From contig CBFHRK010000001.1 in NCBI GenBank assembly GCA_965658225.1, positions 2,335-66,334 on the forward strand: a stretch of DNA of 64,000 nt. Reading direction: 5' to 3'. The notes beneath the pieces are model-generated. The model was given only the letters and a program-made list of their open reading frames with translations, was not told where the DNA came from and ran no database searches. Position 1 is the stretch's first letter; the number at the start of each line of letters is the position of its first letter. Both the position numbers and the translations under genes were made by a program. The stretch comes from Flavobacteriales bacterium. Its GTDB lineage: Bacteria; Bacteroidota; Bacteroidia; Flavobacteriales; ECT2AJA-044. Below are positions 830 through 55,264 of the stretch, one piece after another.

Positions 830-1779
830 TAGGAATCGTTTTAATTCTTATAGTATTTGGGGCCTGCGGCCCGAAAGAAAACAGTTCGGCGGTGGAAGAA
901 ATTTCCGATTCCCCAATGGAAGTTGCTGTTTCAGACCTCAGCCCCTATTTGCTCAGTATCTCGGAAGCGGAGAATGCGGCGAACATCGATTCTTACGTAT
1001 TCATCGACCTTCGGAAAAAAGAGGCCTTTCAAACAGGACATATCCCCGGAGCCCGCTCGGTATGGCGGCCAGATATTCAAAACTTGGACCTCCCCTATGG
1101 CGGAATGCGCGCAACTAAAGAGTCGCTCGCCGAACTGATGGGCAAACTCGGGATTTCAACCGAAAAAAAGATTGTCATTTACGACGAAAAAGGCAATGTG
1201 GATGCTGCACGCTTATGGTGGATGCTGCAGCTGTACGGTCACGAAGATAGCTACCTGTTTAACGGTGGGCTTTCTGCCTGGAAAAACGCCTCATTGCCAT
1301 TAGATACGGCTGATTCAAATCATGCCACTACCCTATTTGAATTTACCGGTGAGGGGAAACAAGACTGGTTAGCAAACAAAGAGGAGGTACTTGATTTTTC
1401 TCAAAGTAATTCGGGGGTTTTACTGGACACTCGGAGCGAAAAGGAGTTTACCGGAGAAGAAATGAAATCAGGTGCGTTTCGCTCGGGTCACATTCCTGGG
1501 GCAAAATGGATCGATTACATCTACGCCATCCGTTACAATAGCGATCAAGAGTTTTTGACACTTGAAGAATTAACTGAAGTGTATACTTCGATGGGCGCTT
1601 CCAAAGACACGCCCATTATTGTTTATTGTCAAAGTGGTGTTCGATCGGCGCACACAACCTTTGTTCTTCGGGAGTTGTTAGGATTCGAGAATGTGAAGAA
1701 TTACGACGGATCGTGGATCGAGTGGAGTTATTTTAATGAATTGCCTATCGCGGTGGTTTCGAAAGACGAAACACCCTAA
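811..1779 (+). CDS. Tandem-domain rhodanese/sulfurtransferase, predicted lipoprotein
   Basis: Lipobox VFGAC, GHIPGA twice, active-site loop YCQSGVRS and C-terminal YDGSWIEW signature. Confidence 0.92.
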   Translation: MVRNRIIGIVLILIVFGACGPKENSSAVEEISDSPMEVAVSDLSPYLLSISEAENAANIDSYVFIDLRKKEAFQTGHIPGARSVWRPDIQNLDLPYGGMRATKESLAELMGKLGISTEKKIVIYDEKGNVDAARLWWMLQLYGHEDSYLFNGGLSAWKNASLPLDTADSNHATTLFEFTGEGKQDWLANKEEVLDFSQSNSGVLLDTRSEKEFTGEEMKSGAFRSGHIPGAKWIDYIYAIRYNSDQEFLTLEELTEVYTSMGASKDTPIIVYCQSGVRSAHTTFVLRELLGFENVKNYDGSWIEWSYFNELPIAVVSKDETP

Positions 1780-1791
1780 AAAGAAAGCTAT

Positions 1792-2697
1792 ATGGAACGT
1801 TATTTTGATGCCTTTTGGCAAGCAACAACCAATTTCGCAGGATATACTTGGCGCGAAATTACATTTCAAGTAGATCCTTGGTATGTGAATTATTTCTGGT
1901 GGCTGGTGGTACTTTCGCTGGCTGTATGGGGACTTGAAATTGCCTTCCCGTGGAGGAAAAACCAAGCCATTGTTCGCAAAGACTTCTGGCTCGATGCATT
2001 CTACATGTTCTTCAACTTTTACATTTTTAAGATTGTCATTTTCATGGCGTTCTCTGAATGGACGTGGATGTTCGTGTCCGATATTTTTGGACAAGGTTGG
2101 GAAAACAAGCTCATATTGGTTGACATGCAGAAGTACCCGCAGTGGTTACAGTTACTCGTGTTCTTCGTGGCAACTGATTTTGTTCAATGGTTTACACATG
2201 TGCTTTTGCATCGCGTACCTTTCTTTTGGCGCTTTCACAAGGTGCACCACAGTGTGGAGGAAATGGGCTTTGCCGCCCACCTCCGCTATCACTGGATGGA
2301 AAACGTATTCTACACCCCAATGAAGTACATTATGGTAATGCTGATTGGGAATTTTTATCCTAGCCAAGCTTTTATCGTATTCTACGTTGCAATCGCCATT
2401 GGGCACTTGAATCACGCCAATATCCATCTCACCTACGGGCCTTTAAAGTATATTTTCAATAATCCAGTGATGCACTTGTGGCACCATGTATACAATTTGC
2501 CTAACGGCAAGAAATACGGGCTCAACTACGGAATCTCTTTGAGCCTATGGGATTATATTTTTGGAACGGCGAGTATCCCAGAAGACGATGCGAATATCAA
2601 ACTAGGTTTTCCAGGAATGAATCACTTTCCAAAAACGTTTTGGAGTCAACTCGGCTACGGCTGGAATTTAACGAAATTCGAAAAAAAGGAAGAGTGA
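1792..2697 (+). CDS. Sterol desaturase/fatty acid hydroxylase family membrane di-iron protein
   Basis: His boxes HVLLH, FHKVHH, HLNH and HLWHH, plus several transmembrane stretches. Confidence 0.9.
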   Translation: MERYFDAFWQATTNFAGYTWREITFQVDPWYVNYFWWLVVLSLAVWGLEIAFPWRKNQAIVRKDFWLDAFYMFFNFYIFKIVIFMAFSEWTWMFVSDIFGQGWENKLILVDMQKYPQWLQLLVFFVATDFVQWFTHVLLHRVPFFWRFHKVHHSVEEMGFAAHLRYHWMENVFYTPMKYIMVMLIGNFYPSQAFIVFYVAIAIGHLNHANIHLTYGPLKYIFNNPVMHLWHHVYNLPNGKKYGLNYGISLSLWDYIFGTASIPEDDANIKLGFPGMNHFPKTFWSQLGYGWNLTKFEKKEE

Positions 2698-2820
2698 CCA
2701 TCAGGCCGCCAGGCCCAATAAAAAGAATACAAAAGCGCAGTAGAAAACCCATTATTTGGCAAGGGCATGCATTGGCATCTGATTCATCCCAAAAAAATTA
2801 GCTGAGTTTCTTTGGTTGGA

Positions 2821-6911: not shown

Positions 6912-8099
6912 TTACTTCCCTTCTTGCGCCTCCTGATAGAGGTGCTCAAAAATGGCGCGTTCCATATCGTCAAAAGGAACACTTCTTCGCTCCATTACGC
7001 GCTCAGCCACTTCTTCAGCCTTCCCTAATTTGAAATCAGTCATTCCTCCAGCGCCTCCCCAACTAAAGCTAGGAATAAAGTTTCGGGGAAAGCCCCCGCC
7101 GAAAATATTGGCAGAGACTCCTACAACCGTTCCTGTATTGAACATAGTGTTAATGCCACTTTTACTGTGGTCGCCCATAATTAAACCACAAAACTGTAAC
7201 CCTGTTGGAATAAATCGTCCCGCCGGATAATTCCACACTTTGACCTCAGCGTAGTTGTTTTTGAGGTTCGAATTATTCGTGTCGGCACCGAGATTGCACC
7301 ATTCGCCGATTACACTATTGCCCAAGAAGCCATCGTGCCCTTTGTTCGAATAGCCAATGAGAATAGAGTTGTTGACCTCGCCTCCAACTTTAGAATGGGG
7401 TCCGACCGTAGTTGCACCGTATATTTTAGCCCCCATTTTTAGCGTGGAATGATCGCACAGAGCCAATCCGCCGCGCACTATGGAGCCTTCCATAATAGTG
7501 GCTTCTGCTCCGAGGTATATGGGGCCGGTGGTGCTATTAAGAGTGGAAGCCTCCGCTGACGCTCCTTCTTCTAAAAAGATACGATCACCAATCAGGGTAT
7601 TGGTCGCTGAAATTGGCGCGCTTGCTCGTCCCTCCGTGAGGAGGTTGAAATCATTTTCTAATTCAAGGGCGTTATTGCTAAACAAATCCCACGGATACTG
7701 AATATGAACGAAAGGACCTTCGAAATACACCGACTTCATGCTTTCGACAGCCCCCTCTTCCATGCCTTGAAGATCCGTTTTACAAGCAATCAAGATCCCC
7801 TCTTCATCCGTATCGGACTTCGCCCGAAGGACTTCGTGATTTTCAAGAGATCGGATTGCTTCAAATAGCTCATCCGTTGCGCAGATCGATCCGTTTATTA
7901 AAACATTCTCTTCTACTTCGACGACAGGCCACTTCGTGCTTAAATACTCTTCCGTTAATGTAGTCGTTGTCAATCCACTTCTCCGTTCCCACTTTTCGCG
8001 GAGAGTGAGAATTCCGCAGCGTAAATCGGCTACGGGCCGAGTGAAGGTAAGAGGTAAAAGGTTGCTCCTTTCGGGTCCGTCAAAAAGAATAATGTTCAT
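6912..8099 (-). CDS. GlmU-family putative sugar nucleotidyltransferase/hexapeptide acyltransferase (Bacteroidota type)
   Basis: LLPLTFTRPVADLRCGILT N-terminus, followed by hexapeptide-repeat region (GPIYLG, VGGEVNNS, GFLGNSVIGEWCNLGA). Confidence 0.85.
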   Translation of the reverse strand: MNIILFDGPERSNLLPLTFTRPVADLRCGILTLREKWERRSGLTTTTLTEEYLSTKWPVVEVEENVLINGSICATDELFEAIRSLENHEVLRAKSDTDEEGILIACKTDLQGMEEGAVESMKSVYFEGPFVHIQYPWDLFSNNALELENDFNLLTEGRASAPISATNTLIGDRIFLEEGASAEASTLNSTTGPIYLGAEATIMEGSIVRGGLALCDHSTLKMGAKIYGATTVGPHSKVGGEVNNSILIGYSNKGHDGFLGNSVIGEWCNLGADTNNSNLKNNYAEVKVWNYPAGRFIPTGLQFCGLIMGDHSKSGINTMFNTGTVVGVSANIFGGGFPRNFIPSFSWGGAGGMTDFKLGKAEEVAERVMERRSVPFDDMERAIFEHLYQEAQEGK

Positions 8100-10348: not shown

Positions 10349-11410
10349 TTAAACCACCTTCAAAAAGGAAACAGTGTTCACCCCATCCGCATACTCCCAC
10401 AGCTCGGGACGCTGAGAATCGCCCGGTGCTACGCGCATTGGCCACGATTCGTTTCTGCTTACGATGCATTGCAGCTGATCTTTATCGGCTAAAAGTCGAC
10501 TTCTCAATTTTTCGCGATCTGAATACTCCTCATAAAAAACCGTACTCACGGGAGCTTTTAACTTCTCGTCTTTCTTGAGCAGCATAAAGCCGTTTTCGAG
10601 CACTTCGTCCCGATTCATTACAAAAATGGCCCGGTGGTAATCGTAGTTGTTCGCATATTTATGGTGCTCGATAATATCTTTAAAAGGGTAAACAGCTCCA
10701 AAAAACCGATCCAAATTGAATCCTTCCGGGAGGAAGATTTTAGAGACATTACGACAGCCCATACCAAAGTATCGAAGCATATCTTGGCCAATGAGCGCCA
10801 ATTCTTCTTCTGTTTCTTCTCCGTCGAGGATAGCTACGGAAGATCTGTTTTTTCTAATCAATGACGGTTTATCGCGGAAGTAGTATTCGAAATAGCGCGC
10901 TGTATTTCCAGATCCGGTGGCAATAACAGCATCGACCTCGCCTAATCGCTCTTCGGTAAATGAGAATCGGCCCGAAAATTTAGGCTCAATTTCTTCGAGC
11001 AAACGCCCTACAACGGGTAACAAATGATTGTCATCGCTGCTCAATTTAGCACGAAGTATATATCCGGCCGCTAGGACGGAAAGCATATCGTGAAAACCTA
11101 CCAGCGGAATATTCCCGGCCATAATTACGCCGACCTTGCGGTCCGATAACTCCTCCGGCATATTTTCAAGATCGAACCATTTATTCACGGCATCGGACCG
11201 AAGAGCTTGCGCCCAGGCGCCAATGGCATACCTCACATTGCTCGGAGTAAACCACGCGTTCTTTTCAAATTGATTGTCAATGAGCGCATGGAAAGCCTCA
11301 AAATAGGTGTCATTTAAGGCGTGTTCGGAACGGTTTCCATTTGGTCCGAACTGACCGAGAAAAGAACCGAGCGAAATAAGTGCCGATTTACGAGCTTCGA
11401 TTGGGAACAT
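10349..11410 (-). CDS. Acyl-CoA reductase (LuxC-like)
   Basis: VGVIMAGNIPLVGFHD, VIATGSGNTARYFEYYF and YFGMGCRNVSK. Start moved to the ATG at 11410. Confidence 0.93.
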   Translation of the reverse strand: MFPIEARKSALISLGSFLGQFGPNGNRSEHALNDTYFEAFHALIDNQFEKNAWFTPSNVRYAIGAWAQALRSDAVNKWFDLENMPEELSDRKVGVIMAGNIPLVGFHDMLSVLAAGYILRAKLSSDDNHLLPVVGRLLEEIEPKFSGRFSFTEERLGEVDAVIATGSGNTARYFEYYFRDKPSLIRKNRSSVAILDGEETEEELALIGQDMLRYFGMGCRNVSKIFLPEGFNLDRFFGAVYPFKDIIEHHKYANNYDYHRAIFVMNRDEVLENGFMLLKKDEKLKAPVSTVFYEEYSDREKLRSRLLADKDQLQCIVSRNESWPMRVAPGDSQRPELWEYADGVNTVSFLKVV

Positions 11411-11899: not shown

Positions 11900-12745
11900 A
11901 TGAAAAAAACAATCCTCATTTTCTTTTTGATCTTATCAACAACAACGGCATGGTCGCAAGACAATAGCTACGGCGAAGAAAAAACCACCATGGACCGCTG
12001 GGAAGATGAGCTCGGCATGATGGGGCAAGTAGTATTGAACGGGCGAACAGACTCCATTAAACGAGTGCAAAATGAATACATGCGCGCTGGCTTTCGGGAA
12101 ATGCTAAAGCAAAAAGAGAGTTTTCGTCACTCTTTCGATCGACTTCGGACGGTTTCGAAACTAATGGCCCCTGATGAGAAATTCCGGATTTATACATGGA
12201 CACTTCCACTTGAAAATGGTCAACACGAATTCTATGGGTTCATTCAAATCCCCGAGGAAGACGAATTTAGAGTAGTTGAGCTAAACGATTCGTACCTAAC
12301 AATGGAAAATCCTCAATTTAGTTTGGGCTCTGCCGACGAGTGGTATGGAGCATTGTATTACGAGATTAGAAAAGAAAGCTACAAAGGCGACGATTACTAC
12401 ACCCTACTCGGGTGGAATGGTAAAGACCGATTCTCGAATCAAAAACTCATTGAAATTGTACATTTTGACATCGCAGACCGACCGCGTTTCGGAAAAGCTA
12501 TTATTCACGTGGATTCAAAGCCGAGAACGCGCTTCATTTTAGAATACGCCGAAGACGCGGGAATGAGTTTGCGATGGGATAAAGGACTCAAAATGTATGT
12601 CTTTGATCATCTAGTGCCGCGCGATGGCGCTCAGCCCGGTATGTACGCTTTTTACGTGCCCGATTTCTCATACGACGGTCTGAAATTTGAAAAGGGCATA
12701 TTTCAATTGAAAGAGAATATTGAAGCTAAAAACGGACGGAATTAG
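11900..12745 (+). CDS. Conserved secreted hypothetical protein (Bacteroidota)
   Basis: Signal peptide, WYGALYY, YYTLLGWNG and FYVPDFSYDG motifs. No function recognised. Confidence 0.75.
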   Translation: MKKTILIFFLILSTTTAWSQDNSYGEEKTTMDRWEDELGMMGQVVLNGRTDSIKRVQNEYMRAGFREMLKQKESFRHSFDRLRTVSKLMAPDEKFRIYTWTLPLENGQHEFYGFIQIPEEDEFRVVELNDSYLTMENPQFSLGSADEWYGALYYEIRKESYKGDDYYTLLGWNGKDRFSNQKLIEIVHFDIADRPRFGKAIIHVDSKPRTRFILEYAEDAGMSLRWDKGLKMYVFDHLVPRDGAQPGMYAFYVPDFSYDGLKFEKGIFQLKENIEAKNGRN

Positions 12746-15041: not shown

Positions 15042-16277
15042 TTGGCGAAAATTATTCCATTTCGGGCGCTTCGGCCTCCGCGCGACGTTGTTCATTTGGT
15101 GGCTTCCAGAAGTTACGTGAGCTATACAAAGGAATCGCTCCGCGATAAATTGGAGAACAACCCTTATACTTTTCTCCACATCATTAATCCGGATTGGGAT
15201 TCGGAGGAACTTTCGGGAACCGAAAAATTCAAAGCGGTCAAATCCGCTTTCGAATCGTTCCGAGAGGAAGGAATTTTCATAGAGGAAAAACAACCTGCTT
15301 TTTATTTATACGAGCAGGTGGCACATGGCGAACACTTCATTGGCTGGATTGCCGGTGCTGCCGTTTCTGATTACGAAAACGGTGTCATTAAAAAACACGA
15401 AGACACGCTCTCCTCTCGGGAATCCATGTTCAAGGAGTATCTTGAGGTTACGGATTTCAATGCGGAGCCGGTACTTCTCGCCTATCCTGATCAAACGGGA
15501 CTCGATGATTTAATGGACAAATACAGAGTTCAACGACCGGAATACGAATACTATACTACAGATAAGCATTTGCATCGTTTGTGGTTGGTTTTCGATGAAA
15601 TGGACATCGAAAAAATCCAACAGTATTTCGAAAACATGTCGGCTGTTTATATTGCCGATGGGCATCACCGGTCTGCGTCTTCCGCTCTTCTCGCCGAAGA
15701 GCTTGCTGGTCGGAATGCGAACCCATCTATTGAATCACAGCATTTCTTAGCCTTTTTCATTCCAGAAAGCCGCCTTCATATTTGGGATTACAATCGATTA
15801 GTCAAAGACCTGAACGGATTAACTGCCGAGGCATTCATTGATGCTTTAAAAGTCTCTTTTTCGGTTAAGCGCCTAGCGGCGCGAGAAAACCCGAAGCCAC
15901 AAAAGAAGCACGATCTGGCTCTTTACCTTGATGGGTCTTGGTATCAGCTCACCTATGATGCCTCTTCTATTGACCCCACCGATCCTGTTTCCGATTTAGA
16001 CGTTCATATTCTAACTCAGAAAGTACTGGCTCCAATTCTGGGCATTCAAGATTTGCGTACGGACAATCGAATCGATTTCATGGACGGTCGCAAAGAACTT
16101 GAAGGTCTACGCGCCAAAGTAGATTCAGGGGCGTTTAAAGCGGCTTTCGCGCTTTATCCGGTTTCAGTGAACCAATTGAAACGGGTTTCCGATGCTGGAA
16201 AAACAATGCCGCCAAAGAGCACCTATATTGAACCTAAACTAAGAAGCGGTTTAACTGTTTACCCCATAAACGGATAA
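15042..16277 (+). CDS. DUF1015 family protein
   Basis: IIPFRALRP, IKKHEDTL, YIADGHHR and MPPKSTYIEPKLRSGL. Has a TTG start and is commonly linked to serC/serA. Confidence 0.92.
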   Translation: MAKIIPFRALRPPRDVVHLVASRSYVSYTKESLRDKLENNPYTFLHIINPDWDSEELSGTEKFKAVKSAFESFREEGIFIEEKQPAFYLYEQVAHGEHFIGWIAGAAVSDYENGVIKKHEDTLSSRESMFKEYLEVTDFNAEPVLLAYPDQTGLDDLMDKYRVQRPEYEYYTTDKHLHRLWLVFDEMDIEKIQQYFENMSAVYIADGHHRSASSALLAEELAGRNANPSIESQHFLAFFIPESRLHIWDYNRLVKDLNGLTAEAFIDALKVSFSVKRLAARENPKPQKKHDLALYLDGSWYQLTYDASSIDPTDPVSDLDVHILTQKVLAPILGIQDLRTDNRIDFMDGRKELEGLRAKVDSGAFKAAFALYPVSVNQLKRVSDAGKTMPPKSTYIEPKLRSGLTVYPING

Positions 16278-17590: not shown

Positions 17591-18538
17591 CTATTTCGCC
17601 AAGAACTCCAGAATGTTTTTTTCAACGCGCTCGGCAATTTTTTCAGTATTTGCCTTTTCAAAAGTCTCTCCGGTAATTTGCTCGTACAATTCAATGTATC
17701 GCTCGCTTACCGAAGCTACATACTCGTTGGTCATTTCTGGAACTACCTGACCTTCTTTGCCCTGGAAGCCTCCTGCAATAAGCCATTGTCGAACGAATTC
17801 TTTCGACAATTGCTTTTGTTTTTCTCCACGCGCCTGACGTTCTTCATACCCATCGGCGTAAAAATACCGACTCGAATCTGGAGTGTGGATTTCATCGATT
17901 AGAACAATGGTACCGTCGTCTAATTTTCCGAATTCATACTTGGTATCTACCAAGATCAAACCCCGTTCCCGAGCCATTTCTGTACCTCGAGCAAACAACC
18001 GGCGCGTATAGTCTTCCAGCTGCACGTAGTCACTTTCAACAACTATGCCATGTTTCAAAATATCTTCTCTACTAATGTCTTCGTCGTGCCCCTCCTCTGC
18101 TTTCGTAGCTGGCGTGATAATAGGTTCTGGAAAACGATCGTTCTCGATCATGCCGTTAGGCATGGAAACTCCGCAAAGCTCGCGTTTGCCCGCTGCATAC
18201 TCTCGTGCGGCATGCCCCGATAAGTAGCCTCGAATGACCATTTCAATGCGGAATGGATTAGCTTTCCGACCTACCGCAACTTGCGGATCCGGGGCAGCCA
18301 CCAACCAATTCGGCACGATATCTTCTGTGGCTTTCATGAATTTTGCGGCGATCTGATTTAGTACTTGCCCTTTGTAGGGAATCCCCTTTGGAAGTACGAC
18401 ATCGAAGGCTGATATTCGATCACTGGCTACCATTACCAACACGTCGTCATTAATAGTGTACACATCGCGCACCTTTCCTTTATAGAAGTGCGTTTGATTG
18501 GGGAATTCGAAATGGGTTTCGTTTAGCGGCTGTGCCAT
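17591..18538 (-). CDS. purC: SAICAR synthase
   Basis: [26 protein letters not shown] and [10 protein letters not shown]. Confidence 0.99.
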
Positions 18539-18541
18539 GTT

Positions 18542-19510
18542 TTAATCCTTTTTTTCGTGTATATCATAGGCCTTTATTACCCTCTTTACCAACCGGTGGC
18601 GAATTACATCTTTTTCATCTAATTCGAGCACCGAAATACCCTCTACATCATTCAAAATACTCAGCGCTTCCAGTAGGCCCGATCGTTGATTCCGTGGCAA
18701 ATCGATTTGTGAAGCATCGCCCGTAATCACAAATTTCGCCGATTTCCCCATTCGCGTTAAAAACATTTTCATTTGCGAGTGAGTCGTGTTCTGCGCCTCA
18801 TCGAGAATCACAAAGGCGTTGTCAAGCGTGCGACCGCGCATAAAGGCTAGCGGCGCAATTTGAATAATATGGTTTTCGATGTAGTACTGAAGCTTCTCAT
18901 TGGGAATCATATCGCGCAAGGCATCGTAGAGCGGCTGCAAATAGGGGTCAAGCTTTTCTTTTAAATCGCCCGGCAGAAACCCTAAATTTTCTCCGGCCTC
19001 TACGGCCGGACGAGTAAGCACGATTTTACGAACTTCTTTCCTTCGCAGGGCGCGAGCAGCCAACGCCACCGCGGTATAGGTCTTTCCGGTTCCGGCCGGA
19101 CCAACGGCAAAAAGAAGATCGTTCTTGTCGATAAGCTCCACCATTTTACGCTGATTGGCTGTGCGAGCGCGAATCATACGGCCATTAGTTCCATGTAAAA
19201 GCACATCTCCGCCCGATTCCGATAATTCGTTTGCATCCTCAACCATCAATCGCTCAATATGACCTTCCGTAAGCTGATTGTACTTGTTCAAGTGCTCAAG
19301 CATTAGGTTGAATTTCAACTCAAATTGATCTATTAAATCATCGGGGCCAATGGCTGTAATTTGATTTCCACGCGAGATCAATTTGATCTGCGGAAAATAC
19401 GTTTTGATCAATGAAAGCTTTTTGTTTTGAGCCCCTAAAACATCTAGAGGGTCAACGTTCTGAAGAGGGAAAATGCGTTCGCTCAAATTGGTTACTTTTG
19501 GGTCTCGCAA
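18542..19510 (-). CDS. phoH: PhoH-family ATPase
   Basis: GPAGTGKT, RPAVEAGE, APLAFMRGRTL and DEAQN. Exact start uncertain. Confidence 0.96.
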   Translation of the reverse strand: MRDPKVTNLSERIFPLQNVDPLDVLGAQNKKLSLIKTYFPQIKLISRGNQITAIGPDDLIDQFELKFNLMLEHLNKYNQLTEGHIERLMVEDANELSESGGDVLLHGTNGRMIRARTANQRKMVELIDKNDLLFAVGPAGTGKTYTAVALAARALRRKEVRKIVLTRPAVEAGENLGFLPGDLKEKLDPYLQPLYDALRDMIPNEKLQYYIENHIIQIAPLAFMRGRTLDNAFVILDEAQNTTHSQMKMFLTRMGKSAKFVITGDASQIDLPRNQRSGLLEALSILNDVEGISVLELDEKDVIRHRLVKRVIKAYDIHEKKD

Positions 19511-20367: not shown

Positions 20368-20657
20368 TCATTCGAATTGTTAAAATGACCTTCCGGCCGG
20401 AGGCCGTTACAGACTTTTTACACATCTTTGAAGGGGTTAAAGATCATATTAGAGCCTTTGAAGGGTGCGCGCGACTAGAGCTGCTGCAGCATTTAGACGA
20501 CAGCCACGTGATGTTCACCTATTCTTGGTGGAACACTCCTGAAGACCTTGAAGCTTATCGGCAGTCTGCTCTTTTTTCAGAAACCTGGTTAAAAACAAAA
20601 GCGCTTTTCGGTAGAAAGCCCGAAGCCTGGAGCGTAAATAAAATGGTTGAATTGTAA
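20364..20657 (+). CDS. Antibiotic biosynthesis monooxygenase (ABM)-domain protein
   Basis: MIIRIVKMTFRPE...FTYSWW...YRQSALF ferredoxin-like pattern. ATGA overlap with the upstream gene. Confidence 0.85.
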   Translation: MIIRIVKMTFRPEAVTDFLHIFEGVKDHIRAFEGCARLELLQHLDDSHVMFTYSWWNTPEDLEAYRQSALFSETWLKTKALFGRKPEAWSVNKMVEL

Positions 20658-24103: not shown

Positions 24104-24159
24104 TTATTAGTTGTTAAAAAGTCGTTGATTTCTTTTCGGGCCGTAGGCCCTTAAAAAAT

Positions 24160-36895: not shown

Positions 36896-37662
36896 TTCAC
36901 GGTTCCTTTGAAGGTTTCTTCGGCCGGACCAACAAGCTGGATGTTTGTGTAGCCATCCTCTACTTTTTTCCAATGCACTTGCACTTCTCCACCGGGGAAA
37001 CGGAGGGCAATTGGGCCTTCGGCCCGATTTTTCTGCTGTGCCCATACAAGGGCTGCCGCGGTGGCACCCGTACCGCATGAAAGCGTTTCGTCTTCTACGC
37101 CGCGTTCATAGGTACGTATTTCCAGGAAGTCGTTGTGGTCCACAACAAAATTTACGTTGATTCCATCCTGCCGATAGGCAGAACTGTAGCGTATACCGCG
37201 CCCCTCGCCCACTACATCGAACTCGTGCAATTGATCTACAAACCGGACCAAATGCGGAGAGCCCGTATCAAGTACATGATTTCCGTCGATGGTGGAAATG
37301 GACGAAACATCGTTCATATGCAGAGCTACTCCTTGCGGAACCAGTTCGGCATGATGAAGGCCATCGATGGCTCGGAATTCAGTTCGGCCCGAAATAAGGC
37401 CTAGTTCATGGGCGAATTTCACCGTGCAACGGCCGCCATTTCCGCACATAGAACCTTCGTGTCCGTCGGCATTGAAATAGACCATTTTGAAATCGGAACG
37501 CTCGTCATTTTGAAGGAGTATGAGTCCGTCCGCACCAATGCCAAAGCGACGATCGCAGAGATACGCTATTTGCTCGGCCTGCTCGGCCGGAAATTTTTGA
37601 TTGCGATCATCGATTAAAATGAAATCGTTTCCTGTACCCTGATATTTAGAGAATTCAATCAA
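36889..37662 (-). CDS. dapF: Diaminopimelate epimerase
   Basis: KYQGTGNDF, MCGNGGRC, TGSPH and ERGVEDETLSCGTG. Has a TTG start. Confidence 0.98.
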   Translation of the reverse strand: MIEFSKYQGTGNDFILIDDRNQKFPAEQAEQIAYLCDRRFGIGADGLILLQNDERSDFKMVYFNADGHEGSMCGNGGRCTVKFAHELGLISGRTEFRAIDGLHHAELVPQGVALHMNDVSSISTIDGNHVLDTGSPHLVRFVDQLHEFDVVGEGRGIRYSSAYRQDGINVNFVVDHNDFLEIRTYERGVEDETLSCGTGATAAALVWAQQKNRAEGPIALRFPGGEVQVHWKKVEDGYTNIQLVGPAEETFKGTVKW

Positions 37663-38174: not shown

Positions 38175-38376
38175 TATGGTTGGAATAATGTTTTATTATG
38201 AGGTCCTTTTAATTTAATTCCAGTTCGGGATTACCTGATTAGCTACGGTAATGCAGACTTACGGACTTACGGCCCGATAGGCGCAAAAACGGACGTTCAC
38301 ATCGGCCCGAAGGGCCATAGACCGCTAATATTGAGCAATGTTACAAGGTGTCGAATCTAAAGAAACCCGAAATGCT

Positions 38377-40184: not shown

Positions 40185-40324
40185 AATCGGGCCGTGAGGC
40201 CCTGGAAAAGAAATGAAGAATTGGGTTTGGAATCCTACTTGGTCAGCTAAAGAAGCTCCTAGGTGGGATTCTTTTCTTAGTATCCGTTTTTAATTTTGGG
40301 GTTCCAAATCAGGGTAATAAAGGT

Positions 40325-42049: not shown

Positions 42050-42739
42050 CTAAAGCAACGCTCTCAGCTCCTTTAAATGCTGGATCTCATAAGTTACCGG
42101 CTCTTGGTGTAGTACTTTATGCGGATTAAAGAATACTTGATCCCAACCGGCCTGTTTCGCTCCTATAATGTCGGCTTCTAAGTTATCGCCGATCATTAAA
42201 CTGCGTTCTTTTGAGGCCCCTGTTCTGCTCAGCGCATATCGGAAAATATTGTGATGCGGCTTGCGAACGCCCGCCTGCTCTGAGGTTACGATCACATCAA
42301 AATGATCACCCAAGGTGCTTTCCTTGAGCTTGATGTGCTGCACTTCCTCAAATCCATTCGTGATAATATGCAACTCATAGCGTTCCTTCAAGTAAACGAG
42401 CGTTTCAATAGCTTCCGGGAATAGGTTCTTCTTATATGGCGAACGAGCGAGGTATTCTTTTTCCATCCATTTTGCGACCTCACGGTCGGATATCCCAAAT
42501 TCCTCCAACGTGCGCAAAAAACGAGTTATGCGCAGCGTAGCTTTATCAATTTCCCCATTTCGATACTTCTTCCACATTCGATCGTTATGAACGCGGTAGC
42601 GCGGAAAAAACTCATCGAGCCGCAGGCTCCCATGATGAAGCGGAAGCTCCGCCAATAGCTCGCCTAGCGTCTCTTGCGCATTGGCGTCAAAATCCCACAG
42701 CGTATGATCTAAATCGAAAAAAAGATGATCGTACTTCAT
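42050..42739 (-). CDS. yjjG: YjjG-family HAD noncanonical pyrimidine nucleotidase
   Basis: FFDLDHTLWDF, IITNGF, KPH and MIGDNLEADI. Confidence 0.92.
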   Translation of the reverse strand: MKYDHLFFDLDHTLWDFDANAQETLGELLAELPLHHGSLRLDEFFPRYRVHNDRMWKKYRNGEIDKATLRITRFLRTLEEFGISDREVAKWMEKEYLARSPYKKNLFPEAIETLVYLKERYELHIITNGFEEVQHIKLKESTLGDHFDVIVTSEQAGVRKPHHNIFRYALSRTGASKERSLMIGDNLEADIIGAKQAGWDQVFFNPHKVLHQEPVTYEIQHLKELRALL

Positions 42740-43393: not shown

Positions 43394-44275
43394 TTAAGGT
43401 TGATACCATTTGAGGTACCAGGGCAGTCGGTTAATGATTAGCTCGGGAATTGATTTTTCCTCAGGCTTTAATCGGTCCGCGAGGACCTTTGGCAAAACCG
43501 TTCCGTCTACTTCCAAAAATACGGGAAAGGGTTCCGATTCCGCAATAATTGCTTGTACTAATAGCGTCTCGGGCCAGCGATCGGCATCCACTCGCTTTCC
43601 CGCCAAGGTGTGAAGGGTAATGCGATCGGCATCGTAAAAGATATAGGCCCCCGCCGCCAAAGTATTTTGTCGGTCGTACAAGCTCCACACCTGCCCTTTT
43701 CTTTTGTGCTGACCTACATGAAGTAAATGCTTTAATCGCTCGAGACTTTGACCATCAAATGCATGTTTTGGGTTTTGTTGTTCGACTAAAAGTTCGATCA
43801 ATGCTTCAGGTGGATCGTTCCGGAATACCGTGTAATCGAGTTCTCGTTTGACATACTCCGAATTGCTTTTGATGTGTTCAGAAGGGGTCTTTCCCGGACC
43901 ACACTGCCATTGATAAACAAGGGAATTGATTGGTGAAATTCTCGGCGAGTTTTGCTCGTTTAGATGCCAGCGAACAAACGCGTACTCTTCAGGAACGGCC
44001 AACAAGAAATCGCTGAGTAAGGATTCATCGATCTCGGGACCAACGACTCCAAGCTGATAGGTCCACGGAGGCATAGCACCAATCTGCTTCCCGTATTTCT
44101 CATACTTGGGCAACGGCATTACCGCTTCATAGTCGTTCAGAACGAGCGCGTCCCAACGGTCTACAACCGTATCGAGAAACCAAGAAAAGGTATACGGTCT
44201 TCCTTTTCCGTATTTACGTACCGTTTTGTTCCAAGCCTCCTCATTGAGATCGTCTTGGCGAACAAATTTTATCAT
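43394..44275 (-). CDS. Hypothetical protein, probable FemAB/GNAT-like acyltransferase fold
   Basis: WFLDTVVDRWDALVLNDYEAVMPLP motif, in the wecB-deacetylase cluster. Fold is inferred. Confidence 0.6.
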   Translation of the reverse strand: MIKFVRQDDLNEEAWNKTVRKYGKGRPYTFSWFLDTVVDRWDALVLNDYEAVMPLPKYEKYGKQIGAMPPWTYQLGVVGPEIDESLLSDFLLAVPEEYAFVRWHLNEQNSPRISPINSLVYQWQCGPGKTPSEHIKSNSEYVKRELDYTVFRNDPPEALIELLVEQQNPKHAFDGQSLERLKHLLHVGQHKRKGQVWSLYDRQNTLAAGAYIFYDADRITLHTLAGKRVDADRWPETLLVQAIIAESEPFPVFLEVDGTVLPKVLADRLKPEEKSIPELIINRLPWYLKWYQP

Positions 44276-44284: not shown

Positions 44285-45592
44285 TTAATCCGAATGCGCC
44301 GCATCCAGCAGTCCTTCGTAATAATGCCTCCACCCCCTCCAAAGTTTATTTTCAGAAACAGATTCGTTATGCCAAACCGAAATAAAAGTGCCTTGAACGT
44401 CTTTTACCGCCTTCAATACAGGAAGTGTTTTTTCAAGCGCTTCGGGTGCATCCATTTTTTGGTAGAACTTTAAAATACCTTCCATGGCCGCAAATGGGTG
44501 GATTTTTAGTGGCGTCATGAATTCTAAATCGAGGTCGTAAAAGTAAAACGGTGTGCAGGTTCCGGCCCTAAACCCGAGCTGAGATGCGTAGCCCATGGTG
44601 TAATCATCCGTAATATCTAAATCCAAAAGGTTTCGGTAGGTTTCCGGAATAGTCAGCTTCAAAAAGTGCTGCCTGCTTCTAGTTATCTCTCGATGCGTTA
44701 TTCCTCCCAATCGCTGCACTTCGTCTGCCAAGCGCTTTTTCTTCTTATTGCTACCATACGACGGGTGGATTCCAATTTGTGCGTAATCGGCAATTCCTTT
44801 AATCAATCGTCGAAATCGAGGGTTTGTGTACGGTACATTCTTATCATTTAGTCCGTAATCGGCTAAAAGGAAAAAGTAAATCGTAGGGACTTTATACTTC
44901 TCTTGGATCGACTTCAAATACGGGAAAGTGTCGTACGGATCGGGCCGCAGGCCCAAAAGAACAGAAATACGCTCGACAATTTCGCGACCGTTCAGCTGGG
45001 TAACCGCCCTAAAGAATCCGCCCATACCCCGCATCAAGCCTTTCCCAGTATAGGAATAGGCATTGTCTACGTCAATTGTATTAATGAAGGAAAAGCTTCG
45101 TTCGGGCCATTTGAATTCGGGGAACGCTTGAGATAAAATCTCTTTAATCTTGAGTGCCCATTCATCGACTACTGGTCGCTGCAAAAAATGTGCTTTATAG
45201 GCAACCGACGACTCAGCAGAAAAACGTTCATGCTTATCCTTGATATGAGGCAAGTACTCTTCATAACGCGACAGCAAGTAAAAAGAAGCTGCAAAGGGAT
45301 CGAAAGGCAAGGCCGATGGCGTAGGCACTGGGAACAATGAAATTACGTCGTCTAATTCGCTGGGTTTTGGATCCCACTCATTGATTCCCGTTTCAAACAG
45401 CAGTGAGCTATTCCTAAAAAACACTTCATTTCCCAAGGGGCGTGGGGCATAGCTCATTTTAGGTCCCTTGTGCTCAATGAATTCAGAAACTTCGGTCGTG
45501 ACTTCTACCGAGACTTTAAGCATTTCGGCAAAAACCTGCTTAAAGGCGTACAATACACGCGGGTTCTTTTTATGTGCATACACCAAAATCAT
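44285..45592 (-). CDS. Polysaccharide deacetylase family protein with N-terminal DUF7033-like domain
   Basis: FDPFAASFYLLSRYEEY, TIDVD, IGIHPSY, RQHFL and VWHNE. ATGA overlap with wecB supports a start at 45592. Confidence 0.85.
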   Translation of the reverse strand: MILVYAHKKNPRVLYAFKQVFAEMLKVSVEVTTEVSEFIEHKGPKMSYAPRPLGNEVFFRNSSLLFETGINEWDPKPSELDDVISLFPVPTPSALPFDPFAASFYLLSRYEEYLPHIKDKHERFSAESSVAYKAHFLQRPVVDEWALKIKEILSQAFPEFKWPERSFSFINTIDVDNAYSYTGKGLMRGMGGFFRAVTQLNGREIVERISVLLGLRPDPYDTFPYLKSIQEKYKVPTIYFFLLADYGLNDKNVPYTNPRFRRLIKGIADYAQIGIHPSYGSNKKKKRLADEVQRLGGITHREITRSRQHFLKLTIPETYRNLLDLDITDDYTMGYASQLGFRAGTCTPFYFYDLDLEFMTPLKIHPFAAMEGILKFYQKMDAPEALEKTLPVLKAVKDVQGTFISVWHNESVSENKLWRGWRHYYEGLLDAAHSD

Positions 45593-46719
45593 CCGAACAC
45601 CTTCCAAATATGTTCGGCAATCAAGTTGGCCGCATCGCCATTCCCAAAGGTCCCTTTAACTGGACCGGTTTTTGGCTCAGCAGCTAAACGTTTCCATGTA
45701 GCTTCAATCAATCCCGAATCGCAATCAACGATGGTTGCGAAGGTATTGTCAACCAATTCGTTCCATTCCGTTTCAGAGCGTAATATTACGCTAGGCGTTC
45801 CAAAAAAGAAGGCTTCCTTGGGTATTCCGCCGCTATCAGTAATGACGAATCGAGCATCGCGAACGAGTGCCAGGGTTTCAAAATAAGTCGTGGGCGATTC
45901 AAAAAGAAACCTTTTGTGTCCGTGAATTTTTGGCCAAAACTCCGGATAATGGGTGTCAATGGCTGTTCGTGTACGAGGATGACAAGGGAAATAAAGCATC
46001 GCTCCCGAGGCTTCCGTATTGTACAGGACGCTATTCAGAATTGTTGTAAGTCGAGCCGGGTCATTGGTATTCTCGGCTCTATGCAACGTAAAGAGCACAA
46101 AGTCATCGGGATCTAATCCAGCCGGGAGGCTGGCTTTATTACTGAAATACAAAGCGTTATCGTACATCACGTCACCCGTAAGCTGAACGCTCGGGTTTAC
46201 AACTGTTGGCTCACCTACGGCTCGATTCGTAATGCCTTCAGCCTTCAACTGTTCCACCGCTGCCTCCACCGGGCAAGCCAGAACACAACTTAAATGATCC
46301 GTTAAATGTCGGTTTACTTCTTCGGGCATACTCCGATTATAGGAGCGCAAGCCGGCTTCTACGTGAACAAGGGGCAATTCTAGGTCGCTCGCGGCCAGGG
46401 CTGCACCCAGCGTAGTATTCGTATCGCCATATACCAAAACCACATCAGGCCGATTTTCTTCCCAAAGCTTGTGAAGCTCCATGGTTATTCTGGCTGTTTG
46501 AACGGCGGGTTTACCGCTTCCTACCCCGAGGTTGTATTTCGGGTTGGGCAATTCTAATTCCCGAAAGAAAACATCGGACATGTTATCGTCGTAATGCTGG
46601 CCCGAGTGAATGAGCGTTTCTTCTATTCGACCCGCATAATCGGCCCGCAATACACGATCTAATGCGGCAGACTTTATAAACTGAGGTCGAGCCCCTACAA
46701 CTGTGTGAAGTTTTATCAT
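45589..46719 (-). CDS. wecB: UDP-N-acetylglucosamine 2-epimerase (non-hydrolysing)
   Basis: GARPQFIK, HSGQHYD, VYGDTNTT, HVEAGLRS and TDSGG. Confidence 0.96.
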   Translation of the reverse strand: MIKLHTVVGARPQFIKSAALDRVLRADYAGRIEETLIHSGQHYDDNMSDVFFRELELPNPKYNLGVGSGKPAVQTARITMELHKLWEENRPDVVLVYGDTNTTLGAALAASDLELPLVHVEAGLRSYNRSMPEEVNRHLTDHLSCVLACPVEAAVEQLKAEGITNRAVGEPTVVNPSVQLTGDVMYDNALYFSNKASLPAGLDPDDFVLFTLHRAENTNDPARLTTILNSVLYNTEASGAMLYFPCHPRTRTAIDTHYPEFWPKIHGHKRFLFESPTTYFETLALVRDARFVITDSGGIPKEAFFFGTPSVILRSETEWNELVDNTFATIVDCDSGLIEATWKRLAAEPKTGPVKGTFGNGDAANLIAEHIWKVFG

Positions 46720-48915: not shown

Positions 48916-50073
48916 ATGATAGAGCGTTTTAAACAAATTCGGAAGTATACCGAAGATCTTTGTCTTCCCCTTCAAGTAGAAGATTATATTCCTCAAGCGG
49001 TGGTGGATGTGAGTCCACCTAAATGGCATCTCGCCCATACTACTTGGTTTTTCGAAACGTTCATCTTAAAGCCACACGCTCCTGGTTATCAAGTGTTTCA
49101 AGAGAAATACAGCTTCCTTTTCAACTCCTATTACGAATCTATTGGAGATCGTGTTTTCCGCGATCATCGCGGACATATGAGTCGGCCCACGGTTTCAGAA
49201 GTGTATGATTACCGAGCGTATGTAAACGAGCACATGGTCGAGTTTTTGGAGAATTCCGAGGTTCCAAATTTCCTTAATGAGGTTTTGGCCTTAGGTCTTC
49301 AGCACGAGCAACAACACCAAGAGTTACTCATAACGGACTTAAAGTTCACACTCTCTCGAAACCCCTTGTTTCCAGCGTACGACTTAAATAACACTTGGGA
49401 GACTAATTTTCCTTCGCCGGCGGAAAACCAATGGGTTGAATTGGCTGAAGGGCTCTACGATATAGGCTACTCGGGAAGCGATTTTTGTTTCGACAATGAA
49501 TTGGGTCGGCATAAAGTATATCTCGCAGGTTGTCGTGCCGCCACAAATTACGTGACTAATGAAGAGTATTTGGCCTTCATGAACGATGGTGGATATACTG
49601 ATTTTCGTCATTGGCTCAGTGAAGCGTGGGGAATGGTTCAAGAAAAAGGGTGGAATGCTCCTTTGCACTGGCATCAAATCGATGGTCAGTGGCACGAGTA
49701 TCAATTGAACGGGTTGGTCCCGATCGAGCCGAAGGCTCCGGTGCGCCATATTAGCTACTTTGAGGCCGATGCTTATGCCGCCTGGTCAGGTAAGCGGTTG
49801 CTCACCGAATTCGAGCGTGAAGCGCTTGATAACGCCCTCACGGGCGGATGGCTATGGGAGTGGACGGGAAGTGCGTATCTGCCCTACCCGCGCTTCTCCA
49901 AAGCGGAAGGCGCCATTGGCGAATACAACGGAAAATTCATGGTGAATCAAATGGTACTTCGCGGCGGGTCATTGGCATCGCCTTTGGGTCATGTCAATCG
50001 ACCGACATATAGAAATTTCTTTCATCCGCATCTTAGATGGCAATTTAACGGGATCAGACTCGCGAGTAAATGA
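48916..50073 (+). CDS. egtB: Ergothioneine sulfoxide synthase EgtB
   Basis: SPPKWHLAHTTWFFE, HEQQHQEL iron-binding motif, FGE-sulfatase C-terminal domain and RNFFHP. Confidence 0.93.
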   Translation: MIERFKQIRKYTEDLCLPLQVEDYIPQAVVDVSPPKWHLAHTTWFFETFILKPHAPGYQVFQEKYSFLFNSYYESIGDRVFRDHRGHMSRPTVSEVYDYRAYVNEHMVEFLENSEVPNFLNEVLALGLQHEQQHQELLITDLKFTLSRNPLFPAYDLNNTWETNFPSPAENQWVELAEGLYDIGYSGSDFCFDNELGRHKVYLAGCRAATNYVTNEEYLAFMNDGGYTDFRHWLSEAWGMVQEKGWNAPLHWHQIDGQWHEYQLNGLVPIEPKAPVRHISYFEADAYAAWSGKRLLTEFEREALDNALTGGWLWEWTGSAYLPYPRFSKAEGAIGEYNGKFMVNQMVLRGGSLASPLGHVNRPTYRNFFHPHLRWQFNGIRLASK

Positions 50074-51943: not shown

Positions 51944-51968
51944 AAAGGTCGCTCAATGAGCGACCTTT
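51944..51968. terminator. Bidirectional terminator between convergent egtD and rpsT
   Basis: AAAGGTCGCTC-AAT-GAGCGACCTTT perfect inverted repeat. Confidence 0.85.
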
Positions 51969-51993
51969 AGTCTTTTTCAAAAGCCAATTTCTA

Positions 51994-52245
51994 TCAGGCG
52001 CTAGCGATCTGATTCATCATACCACTCTTTAGGTTTGCCGCCTTTTTCTTGTGGATAACATTGGTTTTAGCCAAGCGGTCGATCATACTCGCCACTTGCG
52101 GGTAACGCTCTTCCATTTGTTTTTTGTCGGTCATACCACGAAATTCACGCAATGCATTACGCATTGTTTTGTGGTAATAACGATTGCGCAAGCGACGAAC
52201 TTCAGTGCTGCGGATTCTCTTTAATGCTGACTTATGATTAGCCAT
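51994..52245 (-). CDS. rpsT: 30S ribosomal protein S20
   Basis: [12 protein letters not shown]...[20 protein letters not shown]. Confidence 0.99.
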
Positions 52246-52266
52246 AATACTTCTTCTTATTCTTTG

Positions 52267-52338
52267 TAGCCCGTAGGGGATTCGAACCCCTGCTACCAGG
52301 ATGAAAACCTGGCGTCCTAACCCCTAGACGAACGGGCC
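52267..52338 (-). tRNA. tRNA-Glu (TTC)
   Basis: GGCCCGTTCGTCTAGGGGTTAGGACGCCAGGTTTTCATCCTGGTAGCAGGGGTTCGAATCCCCTACGGGCTA, with TTC anticodon loop and GTTCGAATC T-loop. CCA is not encoded. Confidence 0.97.
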
Positions 52339-52365
52339 GCGTTGCCTCTATTATTTTAGGGAGTG

Positions 52366-52373
52366 CAAATGTA
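52366..52373 (-). promoter_or_regulatory. -7 promoter element for tRNA-Glu/rpsT
   Basis: The minus strand reads TACATTTG, 28 nt upstream of the tRNA 5' end. Confidence 0.6.
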
Positions 52374-52443
52374 ACGCACATTTTTCTTCTCACAAAGAAA
52401 TGAGTGAAAAAAAATTCAACCTCATCTTCTTTCGAAGCGCTAA

Positions 52444-53919: not shown

Positions 53920-53970
53920 CAGAATTTATGGTATAAAATTTGTACCTTCTTGGATAAACAATTTAGCCAC

Positions 53971-53978
53971 CAAAGGTA
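53971..53978 (-). promoter_or_regulatory. -7 promoter element for proS
   Basis: The minus strand reads TACCTTTG about 50 nt upstream of the start. Confidence 0.5.
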
Positions 53979-54004
53979 TTAAAACTACCCGCTAAAATCA
54001 GCGT

Positions 54005-55264
54005 ATGAAAAAGACACTTCCCCTTATAGTACTATGCGCCTCGATATTATCGAGTTGCTCTTCCAGTTATTTAGCCCAAAACGGTGAATTCGACGGGGTT
54101 TATGATCCCGGCGGTGACGCCGTTGTTTATTACGCTTCTGAGAGCGAACAAGGACAAGAAGAACCAGTAGCGGATTACGATTATGTTGACCCGGAATTTG
54201 ATCCGAGCAATATGAGCGAATACGAATACTCTTCAAGAATCAGACGATTCCATTCAGATGCCGATTTTGGTTACTACGACCCTTATTTTACAAATATGGG
54301 TTACTACAATCCGAATCCAGGAAACTTTGGAACAAGTATTTATTCGGACGTTTATGGTTTCGGGGGAATGCCATACGGAAGCGGATTTGGCAACGGCTGG
54401 AATACCGGAATGGGTTGGAATTCATGGAGCGGTTGGAGCTTCACTTTAGGCTATAGCTGGGGTAACCCGTATGGGCCTTACGGCCCGATGGGTGGCTTCG
54501 GATACAATCCCTATAATCCTTGGAACCCTTTTAACCCTTGGAACCCTTACGGAGGGTTCGGAAACCCTTATTGCCCAAATTATTTCAACTCACTAGACGT
54601 GAACTCGTTTGTGTATGCCCCAAGAGGTCAAAGTCAACCGAATCAGGCCGGATACGTTCAAAATGCCTATCAAGGGGCTTTGAAGTCCGGAACAATAACT
54701 CCTCCGGTCTATGAAGAATTAGTAGCTTCTGCAGAGCCTGTTAGTCGATCTACTAGAACAGTTAAAAATGAATCACCAACAGTGGTGCAATCTGCCCGCG
54801 GAGTAAGTAGCCGTGCAAATCTTACAAGTGTGAACGACCGCTCAACAAGTGTTCGTAAGAACACTCCAGAAAGAATAGAATCTCGAGACATACAAACGCG
54901 TGCCAATTCATATTATCGCCAAATGGAACGATACGCTCGCGGTCAAAATGAATTCTTAAATCGATTTGAACGGTCAGGAACTCCGTCGCGCTCACAAAGC
55001 AACAATTTCCTTGAGCGCCTCGAGCAAGCAACGCGTCAATGGAATGTAGAATCGATGCCGAGTAACAGCCGTGGATGGCAATCTCCTAGCCTAAATCGTA
55101 ACCAAGGAGGTGAATCTCCTGTATTCAGAGGAAATAATGGAGGTAGTGGATCAAGCCCGACCTTCAGGAGCGGTGGAACGAACTCGCGCAGTGGTGGATC
55201 ATCAGGTGGCGGGTCGCGCGGCGGATCAACTGGTGGTGGATCAAGAGGTGGCGGAAGACGATAA
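54005..55264 (+). CDS. Low-complexity lipoprotein (Tyr/Gly/Pro/Asn-rich core, Gly/Ser/Arg tail)
   Basis: Lipobox LSSC, YSSRIRRFH, NPYNPWNPFNPWNPY and C-terminal GGSSGGGSRGG repeats. Confidence 0.8.
   Translation: MKKTLPLIVLCASILSSCSSSYLAQNGEFDGVYDPGGDAVVYYASESEQGQEEPVADYDYVDPEFDPSNMSEYEYSSRIRRFHSDADFGYYDPYFTNMGYYNPNPGNFGTSIYSDVYGFGGMPYGSGFGNGWNTGMGWNSWSGWSFTLGYSWGNPYGPYGPMGGFGYNPYNPWNPFNPWNPYGGFGNPYCPNYFNSLDVNSFVYAPRGQSQPNQAGYVQNAYQGALKSGTITPPVYEELVASAEPVSRSTRTVKNESPTVVQSARGVSSRANLTSVNDRSTSVRKNTPERIESRDIQTRANSYYRQMERYARGQNEFLNRFERSGTPSRSQSNNFLERLEQATRQWNVESMPSNSRGWQSPSLNRNQGGESPVFRGNNGGSGSSPTFRSGGTNSRSGGSSGGGSRGGSTGGGSRGGGRR

Follow-up and report, generated by a model that had tools for sequence, protein, structure and literature searches.

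A genus-restricted family of tagged five-base-pair DNA hairpins with strand-specific spacing in an uncultured Flavobacteriales lineage

The window analysed here is a stretch of 64,000 nucleotides (C1:2335-66334) from the metagenome-assembled genome (MAG) of an uncultured member of the Flavobacteriales, whose nearest named relatives are likewise MAGs. The assembly, G000, comprises 2.5 Mb in 235 contigs with 44.5% G+C; G001 to G005 denote five other species of the same genus. An earlier note on this sequence had described seven perfect hairpins with a GGGCC stem in the window, and all seven were found where it had placed them, with stems beginning at 860, 24138, 36317, 37013, 40189, 44942 and 54473. 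Against these seven, a pattern search for GGGCC-N3-4-GGCCC in dinucleotide-preserving shuffles yielded a mean of 0.05 and a maximum of 1. When the hairpins are oriented such that the loop starts with G and ends with A, all seven are preceded by ATC or TTC, as the note had stated, the former five times and the latter twice. With the TC included, the hairpins on the plus strand lie at 24136..24150 (loop GTA, tag TTC; intergenic, 33 nt past the stop of an open reading frame (ORF) that ends at 24103), 36315..36330 (loop GTGA, tag ATC; antisense in an ORF, at the peptide LGLTAR), 40187..40202 (loop GTGA, tag ATC; 3 nt past the stop of an ORF that ends at 40184) and 44940..44954 (loop GCA, tag ATC; antisense in an ORF, LGLRPD). 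Those on the minus strand lie at 860..874 (loop GCA; inside an ORF), 37013..37027 (loop GAA; sense in an ORF, NRAEGP) and 54473..54488 (loop GTAA, tag ATC; inside the ORF 54005-55264). Five copies are thus inside long ORFs and two follow stop codons, and the copies at 36314-36330 and 40186-40202 are identical. ORFs were called simply as the longest reading frames, so that all coding fractions given below are approximate.

The seven hairpins are real, yet the description by their stem was too narrow, as GGGCC is only one of more than 50 stem variants and accounts for about 9% of the whole family. Genome-wide, G000 contains 123 GGGCC hairpins. The loop has the G...A form in 118 of them, and of these 117 are preceded by TC and 96 by ATC. 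In an unbiased census of all hairpins with a 5-bp stem, GGGCC was only one among the enriched stems: CGGCC, CGCCC, GCGCC, CCGCC, CTGCC, GTGCC, GAGCC and CGACC were enriched 8- to 24-fold and share the G...A loops and the ATC flank with GGGCC. What is constant is not the stem sequence but the 5' tag (A/T)TC, the stem length of exactly 5 bp, the two inner pairs, which are always C-G and C-G, and the loop of 3-7 nt that starts with G and ends with A. The three outer pairs vary from site to site and nevertheless remain complementary. The element is 15-19 nt long and was searched for with the pattern TC + NNNCC + G(N0-5)A + GGN'N'N'. G000 contains 1,347 perfect copies, i. e. one per 1.9 kb, of which 665 are on one strand and 682 on the other, and about 1,800 copies when one mismatch is allowed. 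Counting a single stem would underestimate a structure-defined family of this kind about tenfold.

Each constant part of the design is sharply defined. When the TC flank was swapped for any other dinucleotide, only 2-13 copies were found instead of 1,347; alternative combinations of loop ends gave 70-146 copies and alternative inner stem pairs 90-391. After ATC, a stem of 5 bp occurs 939 times, a stem of 4 bp four times and a stem of 6 bp once. Pairing of the outer positions was demonstrated by a test that does not presuppose it: among the 2,015 sequences selected solely by the eight constant letters (TC...CCG...AGG), all three free positions are Watson-Crick paired in 1,326 and two of the three in another 474, whereas in the reversed-letter control only 3 of 175 were fully paired. 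Loops of 3 nt make up 27%, 4 nt 46%, 5 nt 19% and 6-7 nt 8%. Position -3 of the tag is A in 69% and T in 17% of the copies, and the following T and C are present in 100% each. The predicted DNA folding energy of the members ranges from -4.4 to -6.3 kcal/mol in a model that includes no bonus for GNA or GNNA loops. The commonest single mismatch in G000 is a G opposite a G at the outermost pair (about 100 copies), which exceeds the wobble pairs; the outer pair may be partly dispensable, or two stem classes may interconvert.

The window contains 35 perfect members of the family. Apart from the seven GGGCC hairpins, the plus strand carries TC-CGCCC-GAGA-GGGCG at 490..505, TC-CCTCC-GTGA-GGAGG at 7629..7644 and further members at 10721..10736 (stem CTTCC, loop GGGA), 18148..18163 (ATGCC, GTTA), 20392..20406 (CGGCC, GGA), 28885..28900 (GAGCC, GATA), 34122..34138 (CCGCC, GAAGA), 37166..37181 (CTGCC, GATA), 38302..38316 (GGCCC, GAA), 42615..42629 (GAGCC, GCA), 43472..43487 (GGTCC, GCGA), 46117..46132 (CAGCC, GGGA), 49724..49738 (GAGCC, GAA), 55442..55456 (CTGCC, GGA), 60870..60884 (CGCCC, GGA) and 62673..62687 (CGCCC, GAA). 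The members on the minus strand are located at 2497..2512 (stem TTGCC, loop GTTA), 12400..12416 (CACCC, GAGTA), 15869..15884 (GCGCC, GCTA), 18994..19010 (CGGCC, GTAGA), 23896..23910 (CACCC, GAA), 32199..32214 (CGGCC, GGTA), 34284..34300 (CGGCC, GAGAA), 37575..37591 (CGGCC, GAGCA), 42475..42490 (CGACC, GTGA), 49833..49848 (CGCCC, GTGA), 59523..59539 (GTGCC, GAGAA) and 61033..61047 (GCGCC, GTA).

Mismatched copies indicate which strand folds. Among single stem mismatches read on the tagged strand, G·T and T·G occur 100 times and A·C and C·A, which are the wobble pairs of the complementary strand, only 19 times. Split by gene orientation, the ratio of G·T to A·C is 95:14 for antisense copies, 53:9 for sense copies and 14:3 for intergenic copies. 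Since the asymmetry is the same in either gene direction, the tagged strand appears to fold regardless of transcription. This points to the tagged strand acting as single-stranded DNA (ssDNA) and not as mRNA, and it supports the proposal of the earlier note that the role of the hairpins is at the DNA level.

How the copies arose can be read from related species; the comparison covered 395 kb of the G005 genome and, for G003, 400 kb together with 40 loci. In alignments, sites that lack the hairpin are just as long as their orthologues that have it. Hence the copies are not insertions; substitutions, many of which were synonymous, have created them in pre-existing DNA that is mostly coding. The window member at 7629-7644 illustrates this. 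The peptide LLTEG is also found in outgroup genera, so that conservation of the residues in distant relatives does not account for the hairpin: the codons CTC CTC ACG GAG GGA, by which it is formed, are specific to the genus and identical in three species, while neighbouring synonymous sites have diverged. Between G005 and G000, which share about 84% nucleotide identity, some 154 of 173 hairpins of G005 recur as perfect hairpins at the corresponding site of G000; in 36 of these the loop interior is the sole difference, and one shows a double compensatory change from GGGCC/GGCCC to GAGCC/GGCTC. G003 is more distant (about 70% nucleotide identity). Here the hairpin is still perfect at 22 of the 48 sites that could be mapped, and one orthologous pair has GGGCC/GGCCC in one species and GCGCC/GGCGC in the other. 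Divergence at third codon positions is 0.39 in the 60-nt flanks, 0.24 in the loop interior, 0.09 in the stems, 0.055 at the G and A ends of the loop and 0.05 in the tag. At sites with a hairpin in G003 only, the encoded residues are 60% identical to G000, compared to 68% in the flanks, in a small sample. Judged by these alignments, the hairpins are evidently under purifying selection, or an equivalent drive, that acts on the DNA itself.

At two loci, L006 and L010 of G003 (corresponding to C116:3431 and C29:3610 of G000), the loops differ by one nucleotide (GTA and GTAA, GCA and GCAA, respectively) while the total length is unchanged, as the 3' arm has moved one base into the flank. Such a shift takes three substitutions or a paired insertion and deletion, which hints at templated re-writing.

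The copies are not placed independently of each other. In G000, neighbours closer than 500 bp to each other have opposite orientations in 241 cases and the same orientation in only 43. In the pair correlation, the ratio of observed to expected same-strand pairs is 0.17-0.5 below 1 kb, 0.76 at 1-1.5 kb and about 1 beyond 2 kb, whereas opposite-strand pairs closer than 300 bp are 1.4-1.9 times as frequent as expected. The same-strand deficit is equally strong whether both copies lie in the same ORF or in two ORFs, whatever the relative direction of these; being indifferent to ORF boundaries, it is governed by distance along the DNA and not by genes. The gaps between same-strand copies have a coefficient of variation of 0.76, compared to 0.95 ± 0.03 for random placement, and fit a hard core of about 1 kb followed by an exponential tail. 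An even spacing that would provide coverage was rejected, as no regularity beyond this hard core and tail was present. The spacing rule recurs in G005. In G003, 68 of 95 pairs of neighbours lie on alternate strands (p < 2e-4), and 1.23 Mb of one strand contain 8 gaps below 3 kb where 21 are expected. Copies on the same strand exclude each other over about 1-3 kb.

Opposite-strand pairs less than 50 bp apart are mostly arranged head-to-head with the tags facing each other. In about ten such pairs the two hairpins have 9 nt in common, which results in three-arm sites, for instance GGCCC-TATC-GGGCC-GATA-GGCCC, with one hairpin per strand (in G000, e. g., C2:70389-70412, C7:15672, C10:1237, C12:29176 and C13:23872). 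The middle arm is common to both hairpins, and each loop also provides the ATC tag for the hairpin on the opposite strand. This overlap is possible with GGGCC/GGCCC stems only, which may explain why this stem is so common.

The spacing rule has no counterpart in the direction of replication. In G000, hairpin orientation is unrelated to the sign of the local GC skew, though gene orientation is related to it. In the closed chromosome of G003 no circular bipartition separates the hairpin strands (p = 0.86), and the density of hairpins on one strand is constant over 43% of the chromosome. Mapping onto the leading strand, which the earlier note had proposed, thus shows no replication-strand bias.

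Long ORFs contain 1,242 of the 1,347 copies (92%), which equals the coding fraction of the rough ORF set and bears out the suggestion that the element is tolerated in coding DNA. Of the copies in ORFs, 733 (59%) are antisense and 509 sense; all three frames are used and the copies are evenly distributed along genes. After synonymous codons had been shuffled in all ORFs, 104-113 copies remained, which is close to the count of about 105 outside ORFs. Since essentially all copies within ORFs are removed in this way, the enrichment over the codon-preserving null, the control on which the earlier note had made its claim depend, is more than 100-fold. A protein motif was rejected as a source of the pattern, given the use of all six frames and the frozen synonymous sites. 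The largest hairpin-free stretches, both outside the window, are 17.7 kb at the ribosomal-protein operon (C1:86276-104016) and 12.5 kb at tuf-nusG-rplKAJL-rpoB (C2:70412-82920). The element is kept out of those genes that are expressed most highly and constrained most strongly.

The family is restricted to one genus. Counted across genomes by its subset with G/C stems, it has 403-558 matches in each of the six species of the genus, 2 in the only other genus of the family and 0-6 in 194 further Flavobacteriales. Among 400 Bacteroidota from 179 genera the count did not exceed 65, in a genome whose reversed control gave 12. An assembly artefact was rejected, as the hairpins are present in six independent assemblies, one of them a closed chromosome of 2.84 Mb.

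The top of the hairpin, CC-GNA-GG or CC-GNNA-GG, corresponds to a known structure, as the earlier note had pointed out for the loops closed by G and A. DNA mini-hairpins of the types C-GNA-G and C-GNNA-G are exceptionally stable (CCGAAAGG has a melting temperature of 65 C), resist nucleases, are poorly bound by the single-strand binding protein SSB and are found where proteins begin to act on single strands, e. g. at origins of the G4 type (PMC13037366). The ssiA site of RSF1010 contains CCGAAGG and is held by the primase RepB' via the 5' tail and the base of the hairpin; the promoters of the N4 virion RNA polymerase have a 5-bp stem and a 3-nt loop (PMC13037366). By analogy, a tag combined with a hairpin is probably the logic common to REP-RAYT, NTS-Ssn, ssiA-RepB' and the N4 promoter hairpins.

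A possible interpretation is that the hairpin and its 5' tag are a landing or cutting site for a candidate ssDNA-specific protein on the unwound strand, with one site serving about 1-3 kb. On the strength of sequence comparison, we give this proposal an even chance. When the tagged strand is unwound, the hairpin would snap shut and would be poorly bound by SSB. The folded hairpin together with the 5' tag could then be recognised by a dedicated ssDNA-specific protein, which would bind, nick, or load or initiate something at the site, and the range of one site would be roughly 1-3 kb along the strand on which it lies. If so, exclusion on the same strand and co-location on opposite strands would follow. 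In a wider sense, and tentatively, at somewhat less than even probability, the roughly 1,350-1,800 mini-hairpins may be a structure-defined, strand-specific punctuation of the chromosome that is read as ssDNA in repair, recombination, re-priming or DNA exchange. Each strand would then be marked about once per 2-4 kb by something that is neither a mobile repeat nor a sequence motif, but a second structural layer over the coding sequence. Several points weigh against a landing or cutting site. The handful of protein families searched in the six species and their relatives did not yield a reader. The hairpin-free stretches at the ribosomal-protein and tuf-rpoB operons mean that the signal is not needed everywhere. 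An excess of new same-strand sites near lost ones was not detected, albeit with 17 sites only. Finally, the apparent purifying selection may in principle reflect molecular drive and not a benefit to the host.

Such a drive could come from DNA uptake: incoming ssDNA bearing the hairpin might be preferentially taken up, protected or recombined, so that the element spreads without benefit to the host. This resembles what has been proposed for the uptake signal sequences (USS) of Pasteurellaceae and the DNA uptake sequences (DUS) of Neisseriaceae, which are likewise lineage-specific, occur about once per 1-2 kb in coding DNA in both orientations, originate by point substitution and are depleted where coding constraint is highest; in the present case recognition would take place at the single-strand stage. 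The origin of the hairpins within genes and their density of about one per 2 kb fit this view, the rarity of copies in the most constrained, highly expressed operons is what a balance of drive and constraint would produce, and strand-specific exclusion would be expected if one signal per incoming strand suffices. Riemerella, a relative from the same order, is naturally competent (PMC7965970). Known uptake signals are, however, fixed 9-12-mers recognised as duplex and not covarying hairpins, and the uptake signal considered by the earlier note is, if taken in this sense, at odds with the variable stems and the strand-specific spacing. Moreover, ATPases of the PilB/PilT type (PF00437), which would drive a type IV pilus, are absent from five of the six species. 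We consider uptake-like drive unlikely, if not implausible. The two PilB/GspE-type ATPase genes of the sixth species, G001 (C2:28563-29549 and C1:530369-531358), may lie on an acquired element. Quite unlikely as well are priming or initiation signals, for which the hairpin would bar SSB and recruit a primase or polymerase that starts at (A/T)TC and thereby re-primes exposed strands. The architecture speaks for them, as the CC-GAA-GG top recurs in ssiA and the 5-bp stem with a 3-nt GNA loop in the N4 promoters, such sites are recognised via a single-stranded tail beside the hairpin base, and mini-hairpins are poorly bound by SSB (PMC13037366). The measured exclusion scale of about 1-3 kb would also suit this role. 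Okazaki fragments have about the same size as the hairpin spacing, and the central T of the bacterial primase trinucleotides CTG and CTA resembles that of the tag. Yet there is no leading- or lagging-strand bias at all, and no PrimPol gene (PF09250) was found in the genus. The ssi, G4 and N4 sites number one to three per replicon (ssi signals one or two), lie at origins or promoters and have a known enzyme (RepB', DnaG and the virion RNA polymerase, respectively), in contrast to some 1,350 chromosomal sites here. A search for the RepB' primase (PF16793) gave no match; as the control was silent too, it is uninformative.

The closest mechanistic analogue we found are the Ssn nucleases. These GIY-YIG enzymes act on ssDNA only; they recognise hairpin repeats with a tag (NTS/SRM), and in Neisseria they modulate transformation (Chenal et al. 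2025, PMC11893778). There, a tagged, genome-abundant hairpin with hundreds of copies is read on one ssDNA strand only, with a possible link to single-strand processing (PMC11893778), and the G·T/A·C asymmetry supports strand-specific folding in our case. If the hairpins were cleavage sites of such a nuclease, they would serve to trim incoming or exposed strands. This we regard as improbable, because a gene of the Ssn type (small stand-alone GIY-YIG, cd10448) is lacking: the only PF01541 genes of the genus are uvrC (about 620 aa) and a gene of about 457 aa that also occurs in outgroups. The CGTC tag is missing as well, and the stem sequence is not conserved, whereas SsnA needs the sequence of its palindrome. 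NTS are about 30 nt long, conserved in sequence and clustered around genes; the present elements are half as long, have free stems and lie inside genes. More improbable still is a functionless by-product of a lineage-specific mutation or repair bias, such as template switching at quasi-palindromes or short-patch repair, that makes hairpins and re-perfects them. The loop changes at constant total length at L006 and L010 suggest templated events, and loop and stem preferences differ among species. But correction from arm to arm would let the stems drift at the neutral rate by paired changes, while in fact their conservation at third codon positions is about four times that of the flanks, and compensatory changes seldom occur. 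A mutational bias would also leave the invariant tag, the exact 5-bp length and the same-strand exclusion unexplained. Even less can be said for a classical REP or REPIN family mobilised by a RAYT transposase. The hairpins do share much with REP, BIME and REPIN elements: they are short, their 5' foot bears an asymmetric tag that is conserved, their stems covary and their copies range from hundreds to over 1,000, recognition is presumed to occur on ssDNA, and neighbours prefer opposite orientations as in BIMEs and REPINs (PMC3733652). The tag is GTAG or CGTC in REP/REPIN and (A/T)TC here, and the stem differs from REP in being only 5 bp long and fixed in length. The REP-like element envisaged in the earlier note is not supported in its defining senses, and the classical family is refuted on three defining features: a RAYT gene is lacking in five of six species, 92% of the copies are intragenic, and the copies originate by substitution without change in length, i. 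e. there are no insertions. Paired copies have unrelated stems and are thus not replicated doublets. The search for the transposase itself yielded no intact Y1/RAYT gene in any of the six species; PF01797 has no match in G001-G005, and the only match in the genus is a pseudogene of an IS200-type Y1 transposase with one internal TAA in G000 (C14:24034-24375). IS110-type transposases (PF01548) occur in one species only and are not genus-wide. RAYT and ssn genes are usually framed by their hairpins. Such framing is seen in 16 ORFs, all of them ordinary genes of the housekeeping type and none nuclease-like. An RNA structure, i. e. an element of mRNA stability, pausing or termination, deserves equally little credence. 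Two window copies do follow stop codons, and loops closed by G and A are stable in RNA too. However, 59% of the copies are antisense to the ORF, the G·T tolerance tracks the tagged strand in both gene orientations, and gene boundaries have no effect on the spacing rule. Terminators were rejected because the hairpin is not followed by a T-run and most copies are intragenic. No Rfam family matches the hairpins of the window, the sole match there being a tRNA gene at 52267-52338 on the minus strand.

Two further classes of iterated signals share part of the design. HIP1 of cyanobacteria (GCGATCGC) is highly iterated, lies in genes, is kept at orthologous sites and is non-randomly spaced, and its function is debated (PMC13756078). 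Unlike the present hairpins it is a fixed palindromic octamer and a methylation site, with no covarying stem, asymmetric tag or strand-specific exclusion. Chi and KOPS are over-represented short signals as well, read on one strand and spread through the core genome, but they are fixed oligomers strongly co-oriented with replication, whereas here both strands are equal in every region tested. Every known family considered fails in at least one testable defining feature. By analogy, the recognition logic would resemble that of REP and SRM, and the spread through coding DNA that of USS and HIP1. The earlier note had suggested that the element could be undescribed, and full-text literature searches indeed returned no description of the motif; as far as these searches show, the combination of features and the per-strand spacing rule are likewise undescribed. 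The hairpins may therefore be regarded as a new kind of genomic feature or, more conservatively, as a structural variant within the class of iterated genomic signals.

If the hairpins are a selected signal, the need to form DNA secondary structures would constrain about 20 kb of sequence, most of it coding and with hundreds of synonymous sites in it. This would be among the clearest known cases in which selection on DNA structure prevails over codon choice throughout a bacterial genome. In this genus, conserved synonymous sites cannot be taken as a sign of translational selection. The strict geometry and the spacing per strand would call for a specific reader with a range of 1-3 kb on unwound DNA, and the family could offer an entry to single-strand handling (repair, recombination, priming, DNA exchange) in an uncultured lineage. 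A new ssDNA-specific binding or cutting protein, if this holds true, would be useful as a tool like the Ssn nucleases.

Two minor observations remain. The window encodes a protein of about 453 aa (26161-27522) with a GIY-YIG domain at about 26746-26970; it is kept in the sister genus and in other families and hence does not track the hairpins. The species also differ in what may be called dialects. G000 prefers GAA, GCTA and GTGA loops and stems starting with C, while G003, with a G+C content of 49% in the sampled 400 kb compared to 44.5% in the whole G000 assembly, has about half the density of hairpins, mostly GTA, GTGA and GCA loops and stems that mostly start with G.

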